A DNA stretch of 64,000 nt from an uncultured Bacteriovoracaceae bacterium (lineage in GTDB: Bacteria; Desulfobacterota; Desulfomonilia; UBA1062). The stretch covers positions 7,567 through 71,566 of the forward strand of contig CAZEMO010000006.1 in the NCBI GenBank assembly GCA_964513375.1, in the 5' to 3' direction. Of this stretch, positions 4,396 to 64,000 are shown one piece after another. Each line of letters opens with the position of its first letter. Positions within the stretch are counted from its first letter, which is position 1. Both the position numbers and the translations under genes were made by a program. The notes under the pieces are model-generated. The model was not told the origin of the DNA, did not search any database, and worked only from the letters and a program-made list of their open reading frames with translations.

Positions 4396-5664
4396 TTATT
4401 GATAAACTTCATCATACGCCTTCGCAAAAGCCGGGGGATTCTTTGCCGAGTAGTCGTATTCAACTGGAGAACTGCTGATCACCTCAATACTGACAGGGAA
4501 GTTTAACTTCGTTCCGCTGACAATATTGTTCGAGCCGTCAACGCGGACAATTAAATCAAAATCCACCAGGTAATAGGCCTGCTGCATATTGGCATAGGTC
4601 CAGCCCTGTCTGGCAAAACCGTCCACTGCAACTATCTTGTATGTATAGGCATTCGGGGTGTCGGTTATATAGTCAGTAAGGAACTGGTCAAGCGAAATGA
4701 CCTTTATATTCGAGTAAGGCCCGAAACTCTTAGTTTCTACATTGAACTTTGTAGTCGATTTACCTGTGACGGTGTTATAGGCAGTGTCGTCAACATAGCT
4801 GTCTGTGGTTGCCTGGACTTCAAAGGTTGCAAGCGATCCTGCTGCATCGGGTCTCTTAACATCGATTTTACGGAACATATATATGTCATATGCCCATTTA
4901 GTTCTATGCTTCCCTATAACACCGGGTACTGATGCCGGATAGAATGTTCTCCCGTCTTTGTCTATCATCAGCAGATAGCCCTGGTTGAACTGATCCCATC
5001 TCAGATCGGGAGTATATGCATTCTCAGAATCGAGGCGGAGAAAATCCGTACGGTTGCTGAATCCATCTTTATTGGATCGGGTGACTATGGAATACATTGC
5101 CCTGGCGTCATTCGTTCCCAGCTTGAGCTCAGGATCAGGTGTTGCGGCATTTACGACATTAATGTCAACAAACTGATCAAGTGAATATCCTGAAACATAT
5201 ACACCACCGGAATACAGTATGTCATCTGTCAGTGTATAGCCGGAAAACAGTGCTGCGTGCTCACCTTCGAGTGTGCCTCCCCCATTATAATATGCCCATT
5301 GATCCGGGAAGTTGTACTGTAAAAAATTGCTTGCAACGGGATCGACAACCTGTATAGTCCATGCTTTTGTGTACGTTCCGAACATGGAGGTCTCTGCAAC
5401 TGAGAGGGTATGGTCTCCAATGTCCGCAAACTTGGGTGTATAGGTATATTCAAGCCCAATGCCTTCCAGAACAACGGCATCATCAAGTGACCACACAACG
5501 CTCGTTGGCTTTAATAATGTCTTGATTGAAAAGGCGCATGAATCTCCAGCCGCAATCGCGACGGTTTGCTCCGACGGCGCGCTCTTCAGGATACACCCGT
5601 TAAGCAGGACAACGGCCATGAACAAGAACAGAATTCCCGATAATCTCCTCTTAAATCTTTCCAT
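4396..5664 (-). CDS. Lipoprotein of unknown function; N-terminal PKD/Ig-like domain plus a domain paralogous to 5736-6782
   Basis: Lipobox LNGC; PKD-like YTYTP...GDHTLSV; long blocks shared with neighbour (AYDIYMFRKIDVKRPDA, VISLDQFLTDYITDTP, KNPPAFAKAY). Confidence 0.85.
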   Translation of the reverse strand: MERFKRRLSGILFLFMAVVLLNGCILKSAPSEQTVAIAAGDSCAFSIKTLLKPTSVVWSLDDAVVLEGIGLEYTYTPKFADIGDHTLSVAETSMFGTYTKAWTIQVVDPVASNFLQYNFPDQWAYYNGGGTLEGEHAALFSGYTLTDDILYSGGVYVSGYSLDQFVDINVVNAATPDPELKLGTNDARAMYSIVTRSNKDGFSNRTDFLRLDSENAYTPDLRWDQFNQGYLLMIDKDGRTFYPASVPGVIGKHRTKWAYDIYMFRKIDVKRPDAAGSLATFEVQATTDSYVDDTAYNTVTGKSTTKFNVETKSFGPYSNIKVISLDQFLTDYITDTPNAYTYKIVAVDGFARQGWTYANMQQAYYLVDFDLIVRVDGSNNIVSGTKLNFPVSIEVISSSPVEYDYSAKNPPAFAKAYDEVYQ

Positions 5665-5735: not shown

Positions 5736-6782
5736 TCAATATGCCTTTGCAAAAGCCGGAGGATTTTTTGAAGAATAGTTGTATTCAACAGTAGACCCGC
5801 TTATAAGTTCAATCCTGACAGGATAATTAATCTTTGTACCGCTCACCACATTATTGGAATCATCGAGGCGGATGATGATATCGTAATCCGGCAGATAATA
5901 AGCCTGCTGCATATCGGCATAGGTCCAGCCTTCTTTAAAGGAGCCATCCAGAGCTAATATCTTATATGTATAGGAACCCGGGGTATCGGTTATATAGTCC
6001 GTTAGGAACTGATCCAGTGAAATTACCTTTACATTCGTGTAATCTCCGAAGCTTATTGTTTCTACATTGAATTTAGTGGTCGTCAGGGATGTTGCTAAAG
6101 TGTATGATGCATCATTCACGTAGCTTTCTGTAGTCGCCTGCGGCTCAAATGTAACAAGCGAGCCATCTGCATCAGGCCTTTTCACGTCGATCTTGCGGAA
6201 CATATATATGTCATAGGCATATTTATTATTATACATATTGGCTATATCGATTATCGAATCGGGGAAGTATGTTCTCCCGCTATAAATCAGATCCAGCAGA
6301 TAGCCCAGAATATACTGATCCCATCTGAGATCGGCATTATACAAACCTGAACCCACGAACTTGGTTCGGTTGGTGAAACCATCCTGGTTGGAGCGGACTA
6401 CTACGGAATATAACTTTCTGGCATCGTGAGTTCCCAGGACACCATCAGGGTCTGGTGTTGCAGCATTTACGGCATCCTTGTCTATAAACTGACCCAGAGC
6501 ATATCCTGAAACCAGTGTGATGCCGTCTTTATAAAGGATTCCTGTTGTAACTGTATAAGCTGAAAACAGGGCTGCTCTTTCATTGGCAACTGGTTTTCCA
6601 CTAAGCTCATACGCATATTGATCAGGCAGGGTATAGTGTAAAAATTGAGGTGCAGTACCGTCGTAAGGTGTATTTTCAGATGGTGTGTTGATGTTATCGG
6701 TTCCGCCGCCGCCTCCCCCTCCGCATGTTATAAAACTCAGAGCAATCAATGAAACGAGAAGCAATGAAAATATTTTTTTCAT
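5736..6782 (-). CDS. Lipoprotein of unknown function, paralog of 4396-5664
   Basis: Lipobox FITC followed by a poly-Gly tether; roughly 60% identical by eye to the C-terminal ~310 aa of the downstream paralog. Confidence 0.87.
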   Translation of the reverse strand: MKKIFSLLLVSLIALSFITCGGGGGGGTDNINTPSENTPYDGTAPQFLHYTLPDQYAYELSGKPVANERAALFSAYTVTTGILYKDGITLVSGYALGQFIDKDAVNAATPDPDGVLGTHDARKLYSVVVRSNQDGFTNRTKFVGSGLYNADLRWDQYILGYLLDLIYSGRTYFPDSIIDIANMYNNKYAYDIYMFRKIDVKRPDADGSLVTFEPQATTESYVNDASYTLATSLTTTKFNVETISFGDYTNVKVISLDQFLTDYITDTPGSYTYKILALDGSFKEGWTYADMQQAYYLPDYDIIIRLDDSNNVVSGTKINYPVRIELISGSTVEYNYSSKNPPAFAKAY

Positions 6783-56972: not shown

Positions 56973-58324
56973 GCAGAAGAATACTCGTTGTCGATGATGA
57001 AGTGGGCATCAGGGAATCCCTGAAAGTAATACTGGAAAAGGAAGGTTATACAGTGGATACGGCCTCGAACGGAGAGGACGCCTTCAAGATAATCAGACCT
57101 GGCGGGATAGACCTTCTGATCACCGATATCAGGATGGCGGGAATGGACGGACTTGAACTCTTGAAGCTCTGCAAATCTGTCTCGCCGCATTCGGAAGTGA
57201 TAATGATAACAGGCTATGCGGCAGTGGATACTGCAGTGGAATCCATGAAGGAAGGGGCTTATGACTACATAACCAAGCCCTTCAAGAAGGCCGAAATATT
57301 AAAGGCCGTGAGCAAGGCGATAGAAAAACAGACACTGGCGCTGGATAATCTCAAGCTCAAGAAACAGGTCGAATCTCTTGAATCGGGCCTGATCGTAGGC
57401 GCCGAAAGCCGCGCCATGCAGGATGTAATCAATATCGTCAATCAGGCCGCTCCGAGCCAGGCCACCATCCTGATACTGGGAGAGACCGGAACGGGAAAAG
57501 AGGTCATAGCCAATATGATACACCGCCTATCGCCCAGGGCGGCCAGGCCCATGGTAAGGGTCAACTGTGCAGCCATCCCCGAGACTCTGATCGAAGCTGA
57601 ACTGTTCGGGCATGAAAAAGGTGCTTTCACGGGCGCCGAAGGCCGCAGGGAAGGCAGATTCGAATCAGCCGACAAGTCGACCATCTTTCTGGATGAAATA
57701 GGAGAGGTCCCTCAGCCGGTGCAGGTCAAGCTTCTGCGCATACTTCAGGAAGGCCAGTTCGAGAGGCTCGGAAGCAATAAAACAATTACTGTCGACGTCA
57801 GGATTATCGCTGCAACGAACAGGAAAATTGAGGAGATGGTCAGGGAAGGCCACTTCAGGGAAGACCTTTACTGGCGGCTCAATGTCATAACGATAAATCT
57901 TCCGCCTTTAAGAGAAAGGAAAGAAGACATACCGGCACTGGTGCATCATTTCCTTTCGCGCTATGCCATGAAGAACGGCAAGACCGTAAGCGGCATCGAG
58001 TCGAGGGCCATGGACACGCTCATGGAATACGCATGGCCGGGCAACGTCCGCGAGCTTGAAAACATCGTGGAAAGGAGCGTCGTGCTTGACAGGGACGGCG
58101 TGCTCGGCGAGGACGACCTGCCGCGCAATATGGCCTCGACAGGCATCGCCCAGACAAAGGAAATTCTCACATTCACGGTCGGCACCCCGCTGGAAGAGGT
58201 CGAACGCCAGCTCATGGAAGAGACGCTCAAATATACGAAAGGTGACAAGGCCATGGCCTCGCGCCTGCTGGGTGTGTCAACGAGAACGCTGTACAGAAAA
58301 TTCGACAAGACCGAGGATGAGTGA
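56969..58324 (+). CDS. Sigma-54-dependent response regulator (NtrC family)
   Basis: REC domain, GETGTGKE, GAFTGA, FLDEIGE, WPGNVREL, Fis-type HTH. Confidence 0.96.
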   Translation: MSRRILVVDDEVGIRESLKVILEKEGYTVDTASNGEDAFKIIRPGGIDLLITDIRMAGMDGLELLKLCKSVSPHSEVIMITGYAAVDTAVESMKEGAYDYITKPFKKAEILKAVSKAIEKQTLALDNLKLKKQVESLESGLIVGAESRAMQDVINIVNQAAPSQATILILGETGTGKEVIANMIHRLSPRAARPMVRVNCAAIPETLIEAELFGHEKGAFTGAEGRREGRFESADKSTIFLDEIGEVPQPVQVKLLRILQEGQFERLGSNKTITVDVRIIAATNRKIEEMVREGHFREDLYWRLNVITINLPPLRERKEDIPALVHHFLSRYAMKNGKTVSGIESRAMDTLMEYAWPGNVRELENIVERSVVLDRDGVLGEDDLPRNMASTGIAQTKEILTFTVGTPLEEVERQLMEETLKYTKGDKAMASRLLGVSTRTLYRKFDKTEDE

Positions 58325-58451
58325 TTCCGTTCCGCATTCAAGCGCTACCGTTGTCTGCTGCGTCGGAATGCTCCTCGCCATACGTCAAAGTATGTCTGCG
58401 TCGCTTCCTTCCTTGCCTCCTCGGTATCATCTTGAATGCGAAATGGAATCA
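58322..58451. mobile_element. 130-bp MITE/REP-like element with 21-bp imperfect terminal inverted repeats
   Basis: TGATTCCGTTCCGCATTCAAG ... CTTGAATGCGAAATGGAATCA (19/21 match); starts on the TGA stop of the response regulator. Confidence 0.65.
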
Positions 58452-58717
58452 TTATATTTGGACTGTCATTCCGAACATATGTGAGGAATCTTTCTTTTCT
58501 GATGTTCTACTGAGCCATATTTTATCAACTGAAAATGTTGTTTGTTTAATCACATTTTTCAAGAATAAAGGCCAAGCATCTTTTGTTCCTTTTCTTGTTT
58601 TATGCTATAAACCAAAAATAAGTGGAAATGTCTTCCATCTATAGGGGGTGATATGACAGAATGTTTTCCATGTATTAAACTGTTATAACAGGTTGATAAA
58701 CAAAAGATTAAGACAGC

Positions 58718-59263
58718 ATGAGTAAATCAGAAATAAACATCCAAAGGGCTGGCGAACTTTTTATGTACAGTGTTTGGCTACAGAGCCAAATGTCAGACTT
58801 GATCATATTGAAAAAAAACCCGAAGTATATAAACGATTTTATCAATAACCCTTCAATGATTCCTGAGTCTATACATAAACAGAGAGTTAACTACTGGGAG
58901 AAAAAATTCCATACCGTCAAAGAGGAATTTAAGCAGGTCTTCTCTGGATGCTTACTTGAAGAGGAAATCAGAGATTTGGAATATATATACCATATTAGAA
59001 ATTCAATAGCGCACTCACATGTATCATTGGGTCGTGACTACATGCTATACCGCCCAGCCAGAAAGGCTCGTCAGGAACAAGAAATTAGGGAAGCTCTAGG
59101 CTTAACATCCATTAAGAATGAGGTTTCTCCAATGATCCTAAAACTAACTTTCCATGATAATCGCAGATACTTAAATGATTTTAATCGAATCAAAAGACTG
59201 GATGAAGTCTGTTTCAAGAGATTGTCAAGCGAAATAGGGATTCCTCATTCAAGAATAAGGTGA
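58718..59263 (+). CDS. Hypothetical protein with RxxxxH (HEPN-like) motif
   Basis: IRNSIAH in a helical context; AT-rich coding sequence. Confidence 0.65.
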   Translation: MSKSEINIQRAGELFMYSVWLQSQMSDLIILKKNPKYINDFINNPSMIPESIHKQRVNYWEKKFHTVKEEFKQVFSGCLLEEEIRDLEYIYHIRNSIAHSHVSLGRDYMLYRPARKARQEQEIREALGLTSIKNEVSPMILKLTFHDNRRYLNDFNRIKRLDEVCFKRLSSEIGIPHSRIR

Positions 59264-59285
59264 TATTGCTCTTGCTCTAAGAATC

Positions 59286-59358
59286 AAAAGGTGCCTGGCC
59301 TTGAAATTGGACAAATTAATCGATTTGTCATGGATCAAGGCCAGGCGCCTTTTCCTTC
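59286..59358. repeat. Palindromic repeat A, copy 1
   Basis: AAAAGGTGCCTGGCCTTGA...TCAAGGCCAGGCGCCTTTT with inner GACAAAT/ATTTGTC. Confidence 0.8.
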
Positions 59359-59378
59359 CAAAAACATAGGGGGATTAT

Positions 59379-59651
59379 ATGGAATTGTTAATGTGTATTA
59401 TCTCAGTATTTTTCTTATTCTCTTGCGCATCAACATCTGAAATTGTTCCAGCTGACAACGATAATTATATGATTACAAGTTCCAGTGCTACCATGAGCAC
59501 CGGTAACATGAAGCTAGAATTACTTCAAAAAGCCAATGATTTCTGTAATGCCAAAAATCAAACAATGACGGTAATCAATTTTTCTTCTCTTCCATTATGG
59601 CCAGGACACCCAGCTGAAGCTGAGCTAACATTCTGCTGCAAGAATAAATAA
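59379..59651 (+). CDS. Small lipoprotein
   Basis: Lipobox LFSC; ANDFC...AELTFCC. Confidence 0.75.
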   Translation: MELLMCIISVFFLFSCASTSEIVPADNDNYMITSSSATMSTGNMKLELLQKANDFCNAKNQTMTVINFSSLPLWPGHPAEAELTFCCKNK

Positions 59652-59655
59652 CGCC

Positions 59656-59727
59656 AAAGGGCATCAGGCCTTGAAATGGGACAATTGTTAGATTTGTCAT
59701 GGATCAAGGCCAGGTGTGTTTTCCTTC
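59656..59727. repeat. Palindromic repeat A, copy 2 (direct repeat of 59286-59358)
   Basis: Shares GGCCTTGAAAT, GGACAA, GATTTGTCATGGATCAAGGCCAGG and TTTTCCTTC with copy 1; one 1-bp gap. Confidence 0.8.
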
Positions 59728-59785
59728 AAACATTTAAAACATTTTTTCTGTTTAAAAACAGGAGATTTGTTTATAATGTAATTAA

Positions 59786-60283
59786 TTGTCAGCGACAAAA
59801 TATACATGGAGAAAGGCGGCTAAGAAATCACTGAATACAATCAATAAAATTTTAATGAGTCTTCCAGTTGCGTTATTAATAATGACTGGATTCAGCAGCA
59901 TAGCTGCCGGAAAGTCACCGATGACTGATATAGCTATAAAAGGATATGACACGGTTGCATATTTTATTGCCGGTAAAGCAATAAAAGGCAGTGAGGCTTT
60001 TTCATTTCAGTGGCACGACATGACCTGGTATTTTTTATCAAAAGAGAACAGGGACCTCTTCATGTCCGGCCCCGAGAAATATGCTCCACAGTATGACGGT
60101 TATTGTGCCTGGGCCATGACAGAGTCACGTAAAGCCCATACCGATCCTGAAGTTTGGAACATCGTTAACGGAAAGCTTTACTTGAATTGCAGCAAAAGTG
60201 CATATGAAAAATGGAGCAAAGATATTCCAGGCAATATCAAAAAGGCCGATAGGAATTGGTTAAGTTTTTCCAAATATAAGTAA
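59786..60283 (+). CDS. YHS domain protein, Cys form of the YHS (seleno)protein family
   Basis: AIKGYDTVAYF, PEKYAPQYDGYCAWAM, DPEVW.IVNGKLYL; Cys codon is TGT. Confidence 0.85.
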   Translation: MSATKYTWRKAAKKSLNTINKILMSLPVALLIMTGFSSIAAGKSPMTDIAIKGYDTVAYFIAGKAIKGSEAFSFQWHDMTWYFLSKENRDLFMSGPEKYAPQYDGYCAWAMTESRKAHTDPEVWNIVNGKLYLNCSKSAYEKWSKDIPGNIKKADRNWLSFSKYK

Positions 60284-60338
60284 ATTAGAAAAATTCCAGC
60301 CTATTGTGTCCTGCCAGGACCACGGCAAAATTAAGGCA

Positions 60339-60830
60339 TCATTTTTCCGGCATTGAAGAAGAATGATGGCTGACAATAAGCCATTGTTTACCATCCCAGC
60401 CATATGTGAAACTGTATCGCGCCTTGACTGTGTCTCCGGTTCTGGCAAAATGGAAAGTATAAAGGCCAGAGTCTACTGCCATGTTGCAGCCAATCTCTAT
60501 CTGTCTCATGTCGATCTGCCCGGAGGGCTGGTTCTCAAGAAAGTGCTGAAAATAGTCTATTTTTTCTTCTGGTGTGAGTCGAGGTTTGTTTGAGACTGTT
60601 GGCAGAAGAATTGACTTTTGAGCATAATTGGCAGCAACTTTTTGTGGATCACCAGTTTGTAAGGACTCGTTCCATCTGTCAAACAACGCCGCAATTTCTT
60701 GTACGCTGGTTTGAATGCAGCATTCTTTGCAGGCCATCGTTGTCTGAGTAATGTCGTTTGTGGCAGCAGTTGCGCAACCAGAGATGATTAAGCAGGCCAT
60801 GAAAAACAGTGCATGAACTTGGTTTTTCAT
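60339..60830 (-). CDS. SnoaL/NTF2-like lipoprotein (SgcJ/EcaC, CaMKII-association-domain-like)
   Basis: Lipobox ISGC; LFDRWNESL...LLPTVSN, ARYSFTY, WLIVSHHSSSMPE. Confidence 0.85.
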   Translation of the reverse strand: MKNQVHALFFMACLIISGCATAATNDITQTTMACKECCIQTSVQEIAALFDRWNESLQTGDPQKVAANYAQKSILLPTVSNKPRLTPEEKIDYFQHFLENQPSGQIDMRQIEIGCNMAVDSGLYTFHFARTGDTVKARYSFTYGWDGKQWLIVSHHSSSMPEK

Positions 60831-60922
60831 ATGTTTTTTCTCCTCTATCAATTCGGTATGGTTAGAAAATACCACTAAATAAGTTCTAATAAAGTCAGAA
60901 AACTGTCAGGGCCTCTCATTAG

Positions 60923-60989
60923 AAACTCAAGGGGTCAGCCACCGGCAATTGACGACATAATGTAAAATTTTGAGAAACGACCCCTTTGG
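60923..60989. repeat. Palindromic repeat B, copy 1 (67 bp)
   Basis: AAACTCAAGGGGT...ACCCCTTTGG. Confidence 0.8.
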
Positions 60990-61048
60990 CGCGTTCGGGT
61001 TTAGCCTCACCCGAATCACAACTGTAATTTATTCCGGACAGAAGCAGT

Positions 61049-62014
61049 CTATTCTATTGTTTTAACCTTCAGGCCTGCAGGTATTGCAGGAGGCGTCGTG
61101 TCCTGTTGTCCGGGGACGGTGCCGCCGACAAAGGTATTGCTTAATACAAGGCCGTCAACCCAGAACTTCTGCGGATGCGGCACGCCATTGTGATAATAGG
61201 GTGCAATCATGAACTGGTTGAATTTCATGTCGGCATTCGCCCCTGTGCGCAGGATCACGTTTTCCTGGTTGATGATCAGCTGATTGTTAAGCCAGTATTT
61301 TACATAACCGTCAGCCTGGGCCTCGCCGTTTAAAATGCTGTTCATCTTGAACTGGGCTTCGACCAGATACCATTTGCCGTTTGAGATCGTCTGTGTTGGA
61401 CTGAGCCAGCCCTTTCCGTTCATCCACCTGCCGCCAGAATAATAAGCCGAACAGTAATTGTATTTATCAGGGCCGCAGCCGTTTCCGCCTGCTATCGCCC
61501 TGCTTTCGGTAATCGCGCTCAGATCCTGGTTGACTCTTGCAGTATCGATATTCATACCGTCCTGTATTACCAGATGGGGCTTGCCGTTATTGACTTCGAT
61601 ATAGCAGGTCAGGTTGGTATAGGCCGGACCGCTGTATGCGGACTGTTTGGTTGTTAGGATGTAAAACTCGTGAGGGCCGTAGGTCTGCCCGGTCCATGTC
61701 CAGTTGTCGCTGTATTTGACATAATAGCGGACAAACAGTGTATCGGTCGGCGTGACTGCATGCCTCAAGGCGCCAAGTCCTGTCTGTGAGCCTGTTGCGG
61801 GAAAATTGAACTCAAGGACGCTGCTGCCCGTATCACTGTCATTGACCACGGTATGGCCTGAGGCTCCATCATACCAGCCTCTGGAAGAAAAGCTGGCATT
61901 ATTGAAATCTTCGCTTACAAAAACCTCTGCATATAAAGAGGCAGACATCAGGAAAAAAATGCAGATCAAACCAATGCCTGTTTTTAATGTGAACAGTATT
62001 TTTCTGGTTTTCAA
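61049..62014 (-). CDS. Secreted jelly-roll protein, polysaccharide-lyase-like
   Basis: Signal peptide; SEDF, LFVRYYVKYSDNW, WYLVE...KMN, DGYVKYWLN; TTG start after AAGGAG. Confidence 0.7.
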   Translation of the reverse strand: MKTRKILFTLKTGIGLICIFFLMSASLYAEVFVSEDFNNASFSSRGWYDGASGHTVVNDSDTGSSVLEFNFPATGSQTGLGALRHAVTPTDTLFVRYYVKYSDNWTWTGQTYGPHEFYILTTKQSAYSGPAYTNLTCYIEVNNGKPHLVIQDGMNIDTARVNQDLSAITESRAIAGGNGCGPDKYNYCSAYYSGGRWMNGKGWLSPTQTISNGKWYLVEAQFKMNSILNGEAQADGYVKYWLNNQLIINQENVILRTGANADMKFNQFMIAPYYHNGVPHPQKFWVDGLVLSNTFVGGTVPGQQDTTPPAIPAGLKVKTIE

Positions 62015-62197
62015 TGGACATCTCCTTAAATATTATTCTCAATATAATATGCAAAGTTTCAGCCTGAATCTATAATATCAAGCACATTGGACACAAATTA
62101 TAACTATATCAGGTAACTAGGAATGAATATCGAATCAGCAGCAAACACCCGGAGTATTGGAATGCATGCTGAATATGTTACAGTGATAACAACTTTG

Positions 62198-62264
62198 AAA
62201 CTCAAGGGGTAATCTCCCTGTAATTAAGAACATAATGGAATATGTTGAGATGCTACCCCTTTGG
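62198..62264. repeat. Palindromic repeat B, copy 2 (67 bp)
   Basis: 52/67 ungapped identities to 60923-60989 (counted by hand). Confidence 0.8.
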
Positions 62265-62364
62265 TGGGAATCACAGGATGTATAATCAGATGAACCGTTC
62301 AAATGAAAAACCGTGACGTTTAAGCCTGCTTGGGCTACCATCATAATTAACAGAAGATAATCAA

Positions 62365-63195
62365 ATGATGATCGCAGGAAAGGATATGGATATGGCAGAA
62401 AGAAAAGTCGTATGGATAACGGGTGCCTCTTCCGGCATCGGTGAGGCCCTGGCCCGGGAGTATAATTCCAGGGGCCATTTTGTTGTTTTGTCTGCAAGAA
62501 GGGAAGAGGTTTTGAATAAGGTTAAAAGTGAATTGAAGCATCCGGAAAATGCCATGGTGCTGCCCCTGGATATCACCCGGTTCGATACCGTTGATGAAAA
62601 GGTCTCGGAAGTTATTGAGCGGTGCGGCAAGATAGATGTTCTTATCAATAATGCGGGCATCGATTATAAAGACTGGGTGAGGAATACGCCGTTATCGATA
62701 TACCGGACAGTGCTGGAAGTTAATTTTTTTGGAAATATCGCCATTACGCTTAAGGTGCTTCCTCTGATGGAAAAAATCGGATCAGGGCATATCGTTTGTG
62801 TCAGCAGCGTGAACGGCGTACTGAGCGACAAATGCAGTTCCGCCTATTCAGCGGCCAAGCACGGACTGCACGGATTCTATGATGCGCTGCGGGCGGAGTG
62901 CCCGGAGGGTGTCACCGTTTCCATGATCACGCCGGGATTTATCCGTACCAATATCACGGTAAACAGTTTGAACGGAAAAGGATGCATTTATGGAAAGCAT
63001 TCTGATGCATGCCTTAAAGGCATGCCGCCGGAAAAGATGGCGAAATATGTGGTAAAACGCCTGGAAAAGAAATCACCGCTTATTTATGTGGGAGGATTCC
63101 CCGAACGTCTTGCCATATTGATCCATGACCTGTGTCCCGCGTGCTTTTACAAACTGGCGCGCAAGCTGGAGCCGGAGTACTGCAACAACAACTGA
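62365..63195 (+). CDS. Short-chain dehydrogenase/reductase
   Basis: WITGASSGIG, INNAG, YSAAK. Confidence 0.93.
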   Translation: MMIAGKDMDMAERKVVWITGASSGIGEALAREYNSRGHFVVLSARREEVLNKVKSELKHPENAMVLPLDITRFDTVDEKVSEVIERCGKIDVLINNAGIDYKDWVRNTPLSIYRTVLEVNFFGNIAITLKVLPLMEKIGSGHIVCVSSVNGVLSDKCSSAYSAAKHGLHGFYDALRAECPEGVTVSMITPGFIRTNITVNSLNGKGCIYGKHSDACLKGMPPEKMAKYVVKRLEKKSPLIYVGGFPERLAILIHDLCPACFYKLARKLEPEYCNNN

Positions 63196-63265
63196 TATAT
63201 GGATTCAATTTCTTTTTTTAAAATGAAGAGTATATTAAAGAAAGAAGAAGAAAGGAGATCTGAAT

Positions 63266-64000
63266 ATGGATATCAGCAAAAAAGATGAAACATTAACAGT
63301 GACAAAGCAGACCAGACGGAAATTCCTCACCCTTGCCGGTAAAGTTATGGCCTTCATTTCGGCGATGCCTTTACTGAACATTACAGGACGTAAAGCCATA
63401 GCCTCAAGTGTGCAGGCCGGTGAGCCTGAAACAGCCATTTCTATGAAAAGCGGGAATTATACCCTGCTTAAAAACGGTTTTATCGTCGACGGAACCGGCA
63501 AAAAGGGCTTTCAGGGTAACCTGCTTATCGATGGCGACAAGATAGAGAAAATATCGGAGCGTGAAATAAATGCTGAAGGCAAAGTCGTTGACTGCACAGG
63601 ATTGACCGTGATGCCGGGCATCATCGATGCGCATTCCCATATGGACTGGTATCTGCCGATCAGCGGGCATGAGGAACTCAAGCTTCCGTTCACGGCCCAG
63701 GGCATTACAACTTTTATGGCCGGGCAGTGCGGATTTGCAATTGCCGGGTACCGTAAAAACTCTCCTTACATGGGCAAAATCGGAAACAGCTTGTTTCCGA
63801 TGGACCTCATCCATATCCAGTGGGACACCATGCAGGAATATTTCGATTATCTGAAGAAGAACGGAATGACCCACAACATGATGAGCCTTGTCGGGCAAGG
63901 CACCACCAGGACTTCAATACGCGGATTTGACGCTTCGCCCATAACCAAGGACGAAATGAAGGAAATGCTCGGTCTGCTTGAGGACGCCATGGACCAGGGC
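63266..64000 (+). CDS. Tat-exported N-acyl-D-amino-acid deacylase-like amidohydrolase (partial, runs off the window; absent from ORF track)
   Basis: ATG 63266 after AAGGAG; Tat motif TRRKFL; NGFIVDGTG, PGIIDAHSH, QGITT...GQCG; frame open to 64000. Confidence 0.88.
   Translation, partial: MDISKKDETLTVTKQTRRKFLTLAGKVMAFISAMPLLNITGRKAIASSVQAGEPETAISMKSGNYTLLKNGFIVDGTGKKGFQGNLLIDGDKIEKISEREINAEGKVVDCTGLTVMPGIIDAHSHMDWYLPISGHEELKLPFTAQGITTFMAGQCGFAIAGYRKNSPYMGKIGNSLFPMDLIHIQWDTMQEYFDYLKKNGMTHNMMSLVGQGTTRTSIRGFDASPITKDEMKEMLGLLEDAMDQG

Follow-up and report, generated by a model that had tools for sequence, protein, structure and literature searches.

A pair of long hairpin repeats, here termed repeat A, encloses a gene for a 90-residue lipoprotein in the 64,000-nucleotide stretch of DNA analysed (hereafter the window), and both copies belong to a dispersed, low-copy repeat family whose members sit just downstream of co-oriented genes. 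On balance, we lean towards reading A as a 3' hairpin repeat of the REP/ERIC/Correia kind, which would supply portable homology by which a minimal-mobile-element-type hotspot gains and loses gene modules. The family membership of A, its dispersal, its position and orientation, the allele series in relatives and the breakpoints at A edges are all supported directly. If this ordinary reading is true, the locus illustrates cleanly, in an uncultured lineage, how short hairpin repeats can structure a hotspot of gene flux, with one empty allele, several loaded ones and joints at repeat edges; it would be useful for the annotation of genomes from metagenomes, and would caution against calling cassettes from hairpin pairs alone.

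A strain-variable island holds two copies of repeat A

Judging by the names attached to homologs and by the chromosomal context of the window, which includes valS, aspS, hisS and pilB, the host belongs to an uncultured, sulfate-reducer-type Desulfobacterota lineage of wastewater and bioreactor communities. Metagenome runs from both wastewater and bioreactors carry the window stretch at 100% identity. At 4396-5664 and 5736-6782, beside a TonB-dependent receptor gene, lie tandem paralogous genes with 76-83% nucleotide identity over several blocks, neither of which had a Pfam match. The two copies of A (A1 and A2) are located in a 4.9-kb island between a sigma54 response-regulator gene and an amidohydrolase gene. 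Its features are listed below by window coordinates and strand; related loci carry L numbers.

58324..58450, no strand, MITE-like 127-bp element with 19-bp terminal inverted repeats, at the left island edge, ~14x genome depth
58325..63265, no strand, strain-variable island, 4.9 kb, from the stop of the sigma54 response regulator to the amidohydrolase start (ATG at 63266)
58565..58584, plus strand, solo fragment like the right arm of A, 3 mismatches, chance expectation 0.02 per window
58718..59263, plus strand, 181-aa ORF upstream of A1, weak HEPN-like match
59283..59361, plus strand, repeat A copy 1 (A1), model match 59276-59362 at 100.9 bits, core 59285-59358
59379..59651, plus strand, 90-aa lipoprotein ORF with signal peptide and lipobox LFSC, ribosome-binding site AGGGGGA 6 nt upstream
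59652..59731, plus strand, repeat A copy 2 (A2), model match 59646-59731 at 81.2 bits, core 59655-59727
59855..60283, plus strand, YHS-domain protein gene, in a module (59781-60309) common to three alleles with a different neighbour in each
60339..60875, minus strand, SnoaL/DUF4440-like lipoprotein gene, absent from L022 together with B1
60919..60989, plus strand, repeat B copy 1 (B1)
61049..62014, minus strand, 321-aa secreted ORF, weak polysaccharide-lyase match, flanked by B1 and B2
62194..62264, plus strand, repeat B copy 2 (B2)

A1 and A2 have the same orientation and lie ~370 bp apart on either side of the lipoprotein ORF (59379-59651), in the arrangement that the original prediction had described, with a repeat unit of ~76-80 bp instead of the ~70 bp given there. 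In A1 the outer stem is near-perfect and 19 bp long; it leads through a 5x5 internal loop to an inner stem of 8 bp that is capped by a 4-nt loop, and TTTTCCTTCC comes after the hairpin. The ATG at 59379 is 20 nt away from the end of the A1 core and 17 nt away from the repeat tail at 59361, whereas the core of A2 starts 3 nt past the stop codon of the lipoprotein gene, which ends at 59651.

As DNA, A1 folds at -26.3 kcal/mol (z = -7.1), a value that none of 200 shuffles matched, and A2 folds at -14.1 kcal/mol (z = -2.3). The near-perfect self-complementarity earlier ascribed to copy 1 is therefore real for A1, but it is not a family trait, the members other than A1 having DNA-fold z values between +0.4 and -2.3. 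Because the left arm of A1 is the reverse complement of the family right-arm consensus with one mismatch, A1 looks like a "perfected" quasi-palindrome as judged from its sequence. Copy 2 had been taken to have decayed outer arms; it is indeed diverged, but not simply decayed, since as RNA it keeps 17 of the 19 outer-stem pairs via G.U pairs and two adjacent double (compensatory) changes. Two parts of the family structure are unpaired, the 5x5 internal loop and an A.A mismatch that 10 of 11 copies retain. The proposed structure has 81% of cells paired, with no statistically significant covariation in the 11-copy alignment.

Sequence comparison assigns different histories to the two copies. A1 is 87% identical to A2 and 91-96% identical to copies at other loci. 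A2 and the copy in L022 have in common a derived left arm (GCATCAGG) and a right flank, and A1 lacks that arm. By these marks A2 is the older, diverged copy, orthologous to the L022 copy 5' of the YHS gene, and from the arm and flank in common with L022 we infer that A2 predates the arrival of the lipoprotein gene. The two orthologs are 76.6% identical, compared to 91.3% in the adjacent spacer and 88.1% in the YHS gene; the decay of A2 exceeds that of the neighbouring spacer and fits a repeat under no strong sequence constraint. The spacer between A2 and the YHS gene (59728-59854; 91% conserved, against 88% for the YHS coding sequence) is likely the promoter region of the YHS gene itself, as it contains a TATAAT box. 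The solo fragment resembling the A right arm sits inside the region 58450-58717, which is conserved in L022 (95%) and L013 (73%) and has a second copy in the same genome, minus 104 bp.

The lipoprotein belongs to an orphan family with four members among 5.8 billion proteins, and the motif L-x-[SG]-C-ASTS is retained in all three homologs. The nearest member, from L017, is 71% identical and has no A nearby, whereas a 42%-identical homolog in L020 forms one cassette of a true integron-type array. The AlphaFold model of the lipoprotein has a pLDDT of 82, and a fold search with it gave no meaningful match to solved folds. The region is AT-rich (GC 0.38 versus ~0.46). The gene itself appears to be promoterless, because the 17-20 nt between A1 and its ATG are too short for a promoter.

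Repeat A is a dispersed family located at gene 3' ends

Family A is a low-copy repeat with a near-palindromic unit of ~76-80 bp, discrete ends and unrelated flanks, and the consensus of the aligned copies is (G/A)AACCAAAGGGTGTCAGGCCTTGAAATGGGACAAATTAATCGATTTGTCATGGATCAAGGCCAGGCACCTTTTTCC. The source genome holds at least four further A-like copies, on contigs that match the core 59297-59353 with 2-7 differences and then continue into unrelated DNA. These four contigs have a depth of 11-14, compared to 13 for the genome in the same metagenomes; in total, six A copies of at least 80% likeness lie on genome-depth contigs. A search with a 20-mer of the right arm retrieved seven contigs of relatives from JGI metagenomes, which match at 73-95% identity where DNA is shared and include A copies at non-orthologous loci; being found by this right-arm 20-mer, the sample is biased toward similar copies. 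The recurrence that the original prediction had proposed to look for, in the genome and in its relatives, is thus found. Since one discrete unit recurs at a number of unrelated intergenic positions, both in a single genome and among its relatives, A is a dispersed intergenic palindromic repeat.

A covariance model built on 11 copies and scanned over ~160 kb of the window and related loci detected no further A outside this one locus, and no third copy was found in the window. The viral contigs searched held no copy either. Among GTDB representative genomes, which do not include the source genome, a two-arm pattern gave a single match, attributable to chance, inside a pilB/gspE-like ORF of a Verrucomicrobiota MAG. 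Rfam returned no match at the gathering score, and only generic hairpin matches below it.

Eight of the eight independent A copies lie 3' of the stop codon of a co-oriented ORF, at a distance of 0-80 nt, seven of them within 42 nt:

A1, 21 nt from the upstream ORF stop
A2, 3 nt from the upstream ORF stop
L011x copy, 0 nt from the upstream ORF stop
L011y copy, 37 nt from the upstream ORF stop
L013 copy, 19 nt from the upstream ORF stop
L016 copy, 24 nt from the upstream ORF stop
L022 copy, 42 nt from the upstream ORF stop
L015 copy, 80 nt from the upstream ORF stop, behind half a B repeat

All six full-length A copies fold better as RNA of the plus strand, by 2-6 kcal/mol, owing to G.U pairs. 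The predicted RNA folds range from -17 to -44 kcal/mol and are followed by a tail of 4-5 U, and a simple terminator scan does not call A. Ordinary terminators in the window are short, and each has a sequence of its own.

Alleles of the island differ by whole genes, often at the edges of A

The downstream amidohydrolase gene served as an anchor for fetching relatives. Six different contents lie between the regulator and amidohydrolase genes, those of the window, L021, L022, L010, L015/L011 and L023. The five alleles from relatives are organised as follows.

L021 (82% nucleotide identity, 1.2-Mb contig): regulator gene, MITE, one A, 190 bp, amidohydrolase gene
L010: left flank and A of L021 (including a 6-nt left-arm deletion), then other DNA with an M23 peptidase lipoprotein gene on the opposite strand
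L015+L011: 154-aa gene, half B, A, ~418-aa gene, A, vapBC, YHS, A, amidohydrolase gene
L022 (95% amino acid identity): MITE, conserved region, 216-aa ORF, small GC hairpin, A, YHS, 299-aa ORF on the minus strand, B, SDR, amidohydrolase gene
L023: hicAB, 81-aa ORF, B copy, then amidohydrolase gene

In L021, the island 58325-63265 is replaced by 439 bp that hold the MITE and one A, which is the empty site with a single repeat that had been sought. L022 lacks both A1 with the lipoprotein gene and the SnoaL gene with B1; in addition, the 181-aa ORF is replaced there by the 216-aa ORF, and the two proteins are unrelated. L015 and L011 were joined by a 570-bp overlap at 100% identity. The first A of this array keeps the resident left arm, with the 6-nt deletion common to L010 and L021, while the last A has a full left arm and the resident right flank, and is colinear with the A and right flank of L021. 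A repeat unique to this locus, together with a lipoprotein gene syntenic in relatives, had been named as a ground for rejecting the cassette idea. Neither is the case; the gene is missing from L021, L022, L015/L011 and L023.

Homology between alleles often stops within a few nucleotides of the A edges, namely at the left edge of A2 (window versus L022), at the right edge of the basal A (L010 versus L021) and at the left edge of the last A (L011 versus L021). Other breakpoints of the island lie away from the repeats, at 58685, 59781 and 60309 and at the microhomology CTATTGT, a mark of illegitimate rather than repeat-mediated joining. Two conserved genes enclosing different whole-gene cassettes characterise, at the level of sequence, a hotspot of the minimal-mobile-element type, and the island presents this organisation.

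Several further observations concern the modules of this hotspot. The segment carrying the SnoaL-like gene and B1 (60308-61048), absent from L022, ends in 6-7 bp of the CTATTGT microhomology. The position ~60309, 25 bp past the YHS stop, is a homology breakpoint in three alleles, where the right neighbour is the SnoaL gene, the 299-aa ORF or A. Toxin-antitoxin pairs occupy the same hotspot in relatives, vapBC in L011 (863-1423) and hicAB in L023 (285-753); small secreted proteins are also encoded there, and A or B repeats punctuate these gene sets. The MITE, whose terminal inverted repeats are ATTCCGTTCCGCATTCAAG and CTTGAATGCGAAATGGAAT, starts at the stop codon of the regulator; short-read contigs break at this element, and its ~14x genome depth refers to metagenome contigs. 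B1 and B2 are 77% identical; B copies also flank the amidohydrolase gene in L023, and half a B abuts A in L015. The outer stems of A and B look alike by eye, that of B being AAGGGGTCAG...GACCCCTT; searched as a 12-nt consensus, the shared stem motif has no match in the window at up to one mismatch. Neither a relative at greater distance (73% amidohydrolase identity) nor a YHS homolog from elsewhere carries an A, and both differ in synteny; they were set aside.

Repeat A as a proposed portable 3' hairpin

We propose that each A, lying just 3' of a co-oriented gene, would be transcribed as a long hairpin with a short U run, and may act at the RNA level as a 3' hairpin, that is, as a partial terminator or an exonuclease barrier. 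The same 60-80 bp at the ends of many unrelated genes would then provide portable homology. When a resident A recombines with one carried by incoming or excised DNA, a gene would be added together with one more A, and recombination between two direct copies would delete the intervening DNA and leave one A behind. Such events would probably proceed by general pathways, either RecA-type or template-switch, with no dedicated enzyme involved. The interval between the regulator and amidohydrolase genes would accordingly be a mosaic hotspot, empty with one A in L021 and filled with different gene sets elsewhere. The lipoprotein gene would be a strain-specific, horizontally acquired module between an incoming canonical A1 and the older resident A2.

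Several points count against this reading. A stretch of 60-80 bp at 85-95% identity is a poor RecA substrate. The single orientation of all array copies, the conserved internal loop and the A.A mismatch look like the recognition features of a structure-specific enzyme. Moreover, A1 cannot be an efficient terminator if the lipoprotein gene is expressed, as it lies 17-20 nt before this apparently promoterless gene. The lack of significant covariation in the hairpin counts against it too.

A possible dedicated site-specific system

In an alternative reading, A, and perhaps B, are the sites of a dedicated site-specific system, in which a different enzyme encoded elsewhere would read the folded hairpin and insert or excise cassettes, as in integrons but at other sites. 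We regard this as unlikely. In its favour, small orphan genes and toxin-antitoxin pairs lie between conserved flanks in direct arrays of A, where each copy comes just after an ORF on its own strand; L021 supplies an empty allele with a single A; and in the L015/L011 array the resident left arm sits in the first copy, with a full left arm and the resident right flank in the last. The conserved 5x5 internal loop and A.A mismatch, the promoterless downstream genes, the lipoprotein homolog that is a cassette in the true integron array of L020, and an IS110-family element that abuts a truncated A are also in line with it. In size and shape A falls among the attC palindromes (57-141 bp with an unpaired central spacer or extrahelical bases), given its ~76 bp, its 5x5 loop and the A.A mismatch kept by 10 of 11 copies. 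Sites of the same orientation, each following one promoterless ORF, are A1, A2 and those of the L015/L011 array, while the island also has minus-strand genes and modules without A.

However, the sequence marks of integron recombination are missing. The RYYYAAC/GTTRRRY core sites are absent from all 11 A copies and from B, in agreement with the original prediction, which had noted that the two A copies lack such ends. A scan of 58300-63300 for attC motifs gave no strict pair, and the relaxed pairs do not coincide with the repeat ends. In an integron array, the crossover of each site is followed by bases complementary to those with which the next site begins. This cassette signature was not found in the flanks of A1/A2, L015/L011x or L011x/L011y. 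The positive control, an array of true integron type in L020 (300-2770) that has five sites, does show it: there R'(n) exactly complements R''(n+1) four times in a row. A XerCD/dif-type core at the middle of the repeat was also weighed and dropped, as the central sequence of A does not seem to resemble the dif consensus.

The histories of the repeats argue against the dedicated system as well. A1 and A2 are not sister copies, and A2 and its ortholog decay faster than their flanks. A Campbell-type insertion into A2 is disfavoured, because the derived left arm would then sit in the first copy and not in the second. Several breakpoints (58685, 59781, 60309 and CTATTGT) do not fall at repeats. The notion of a one-gene cassette defined by this A pair is not supported, as A1 and A2 are not the products of one insertion, the cassette signature is absent and breakpoints occur at the 6-7 bp microhomology too.

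No integrase, transposase, HUH protein or other recombinase is encoded among the plausible genes of the window, as originally noted, and no RAYT gene is present in the window. Only the full arrangement, and no excision-type joint, is seen in contigs from four metagenome runs that span several studies, although contigs hide rare forms; contigs with the exact window proteins are all 100% identical to the window. Neither result lends support to the movement of a cassette by an HUH or tyrosine enzyme, as once suggested. A joint 59304->59667 in run X1, considered as an empty site, turned out to be another diverged A copy on a 1.2-kb contig. In L014 (319-1338), an IS110-family DEDD transposase gene is found ~100 bp from an A copy without its outer left arm, and this proximity to a truncated copy suggests that the A hairpin could be an insertion target of an IS110-family element. 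IS110-family elements target attC and REP hairpins (PMC11187229). A literature search on hairpin-flanked non-integron cassettes found nothing relevant.

In its most specific version, A and B would be non-integron gene-cassette sites whose outer stem is common to both and whose centre varies. A recombinase encoded elsewhere would recognise them in the form of folded single strands, loading or unloading single genes and small operons at a chromosomal hotspot that carries just one A in its ground state. We hold this version to be doubtful. If it were true, it would represent a second, integron-independent way to build cassette arrays, and the allele series of L021, L010, L015/L011, L022 and the window gives the exact junctions for testing it.

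Transposition or local duplication as improbable origins

Another improbable account takes A as an active or recently active MITE that inserted independently on each side of the lipoprotein gene, in which case the boxing would be incidental and the allele differences would result from unrelated gene flux. The discrete, dispersed, low-copy unit with inverted-repeat ends, the other small repeats that A adjoins (the high-copy 127-bp MITE and B) and the closest similarity of A1 to copies at other loci are what it would predict. On the other hand, the flanks of the 11 aligned copies show no target-site duplication at the ends of A. Nor is there a case of A present or absent between otherwise colinear flanks, every allele difference bringing in other DNA on one side. 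The co-orientation of 8 out of 8 copies with the upstream gene is likewise unexpected for transposition without selection.

That the two direct copies, 370 bp apart, arose by local or target duplication of one hairpin when the lipoprotein gene inserted, or are two ordinary terminators alike by chance, is very improbable: sequence data on the family contradict duplication, A1 being closer to copies in other loci and genomes (91-96%) than to A2 (87%), and A2 having its derived left arm and right flank in common with the copy in L022, where no lipoprotein gene adjoins it, while chance is countered by the short, unique ordinary terminators of the window and by a 24-mer common to A1 and A2 that occurs exactly twice in the window and in 0 of 100 shuffles.

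Comparison with known systems

Compared to integron attC sites and CALIN arrays, A is likewise an imperfect palindrome of attC length (~76 bp) with an unpaired centre and a conserved mismatch. It is found directly 3' of co-oriented, mostly promoterless small genes, in arrays that include toxin-antitoxin pairs and vary in content between strains, and its hairpin draws, as far as the L014 copy suggests, an IS110-family element. It differs in lacking RYYYAAC/GTTRRRY cores, R'(n)/R''(n+1) complementarity and IntI; in addition, A copies decay, the island has genes on both strands, and breakpoints occur away from the repeats.

With REP/BIME sequences and REPIN-RAYT systems, A shares the form of an intergenic quasi-palindrome at gene 3' ends. 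REP/BIME and REPIN sequences are transcribed as hairpins, and are known recombination substrates and targets of IS110-family elements. They number tens to hundreds per genome, compared to ~6 copies of A, which also has no GTAG-type foot.

ERIC/IRU and the Correia elements of Neisseria are, like A, imperfect palindromes of ~75-150 bp that lie in transcribed intergenic DNA and vary in their presence at orthologous loci, and Correia elements affect transcripts (PMC2649163). In contrast, A has no target-site duplication, no recognised promoter-creating ends and a much lower copy number, and is clustered in one hotspot.

The minimal mobile elements of Neisseria consist of two conserved genes between which strain-specific whole-gene cassettes are exchanged by homologous recombination (PMC3082526). 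They and the NIME/dRS3 arrays belong to another organism and involve unrelated repeats. The organisation is nevertheless alike, in that short repeats punctuate variable DNA.
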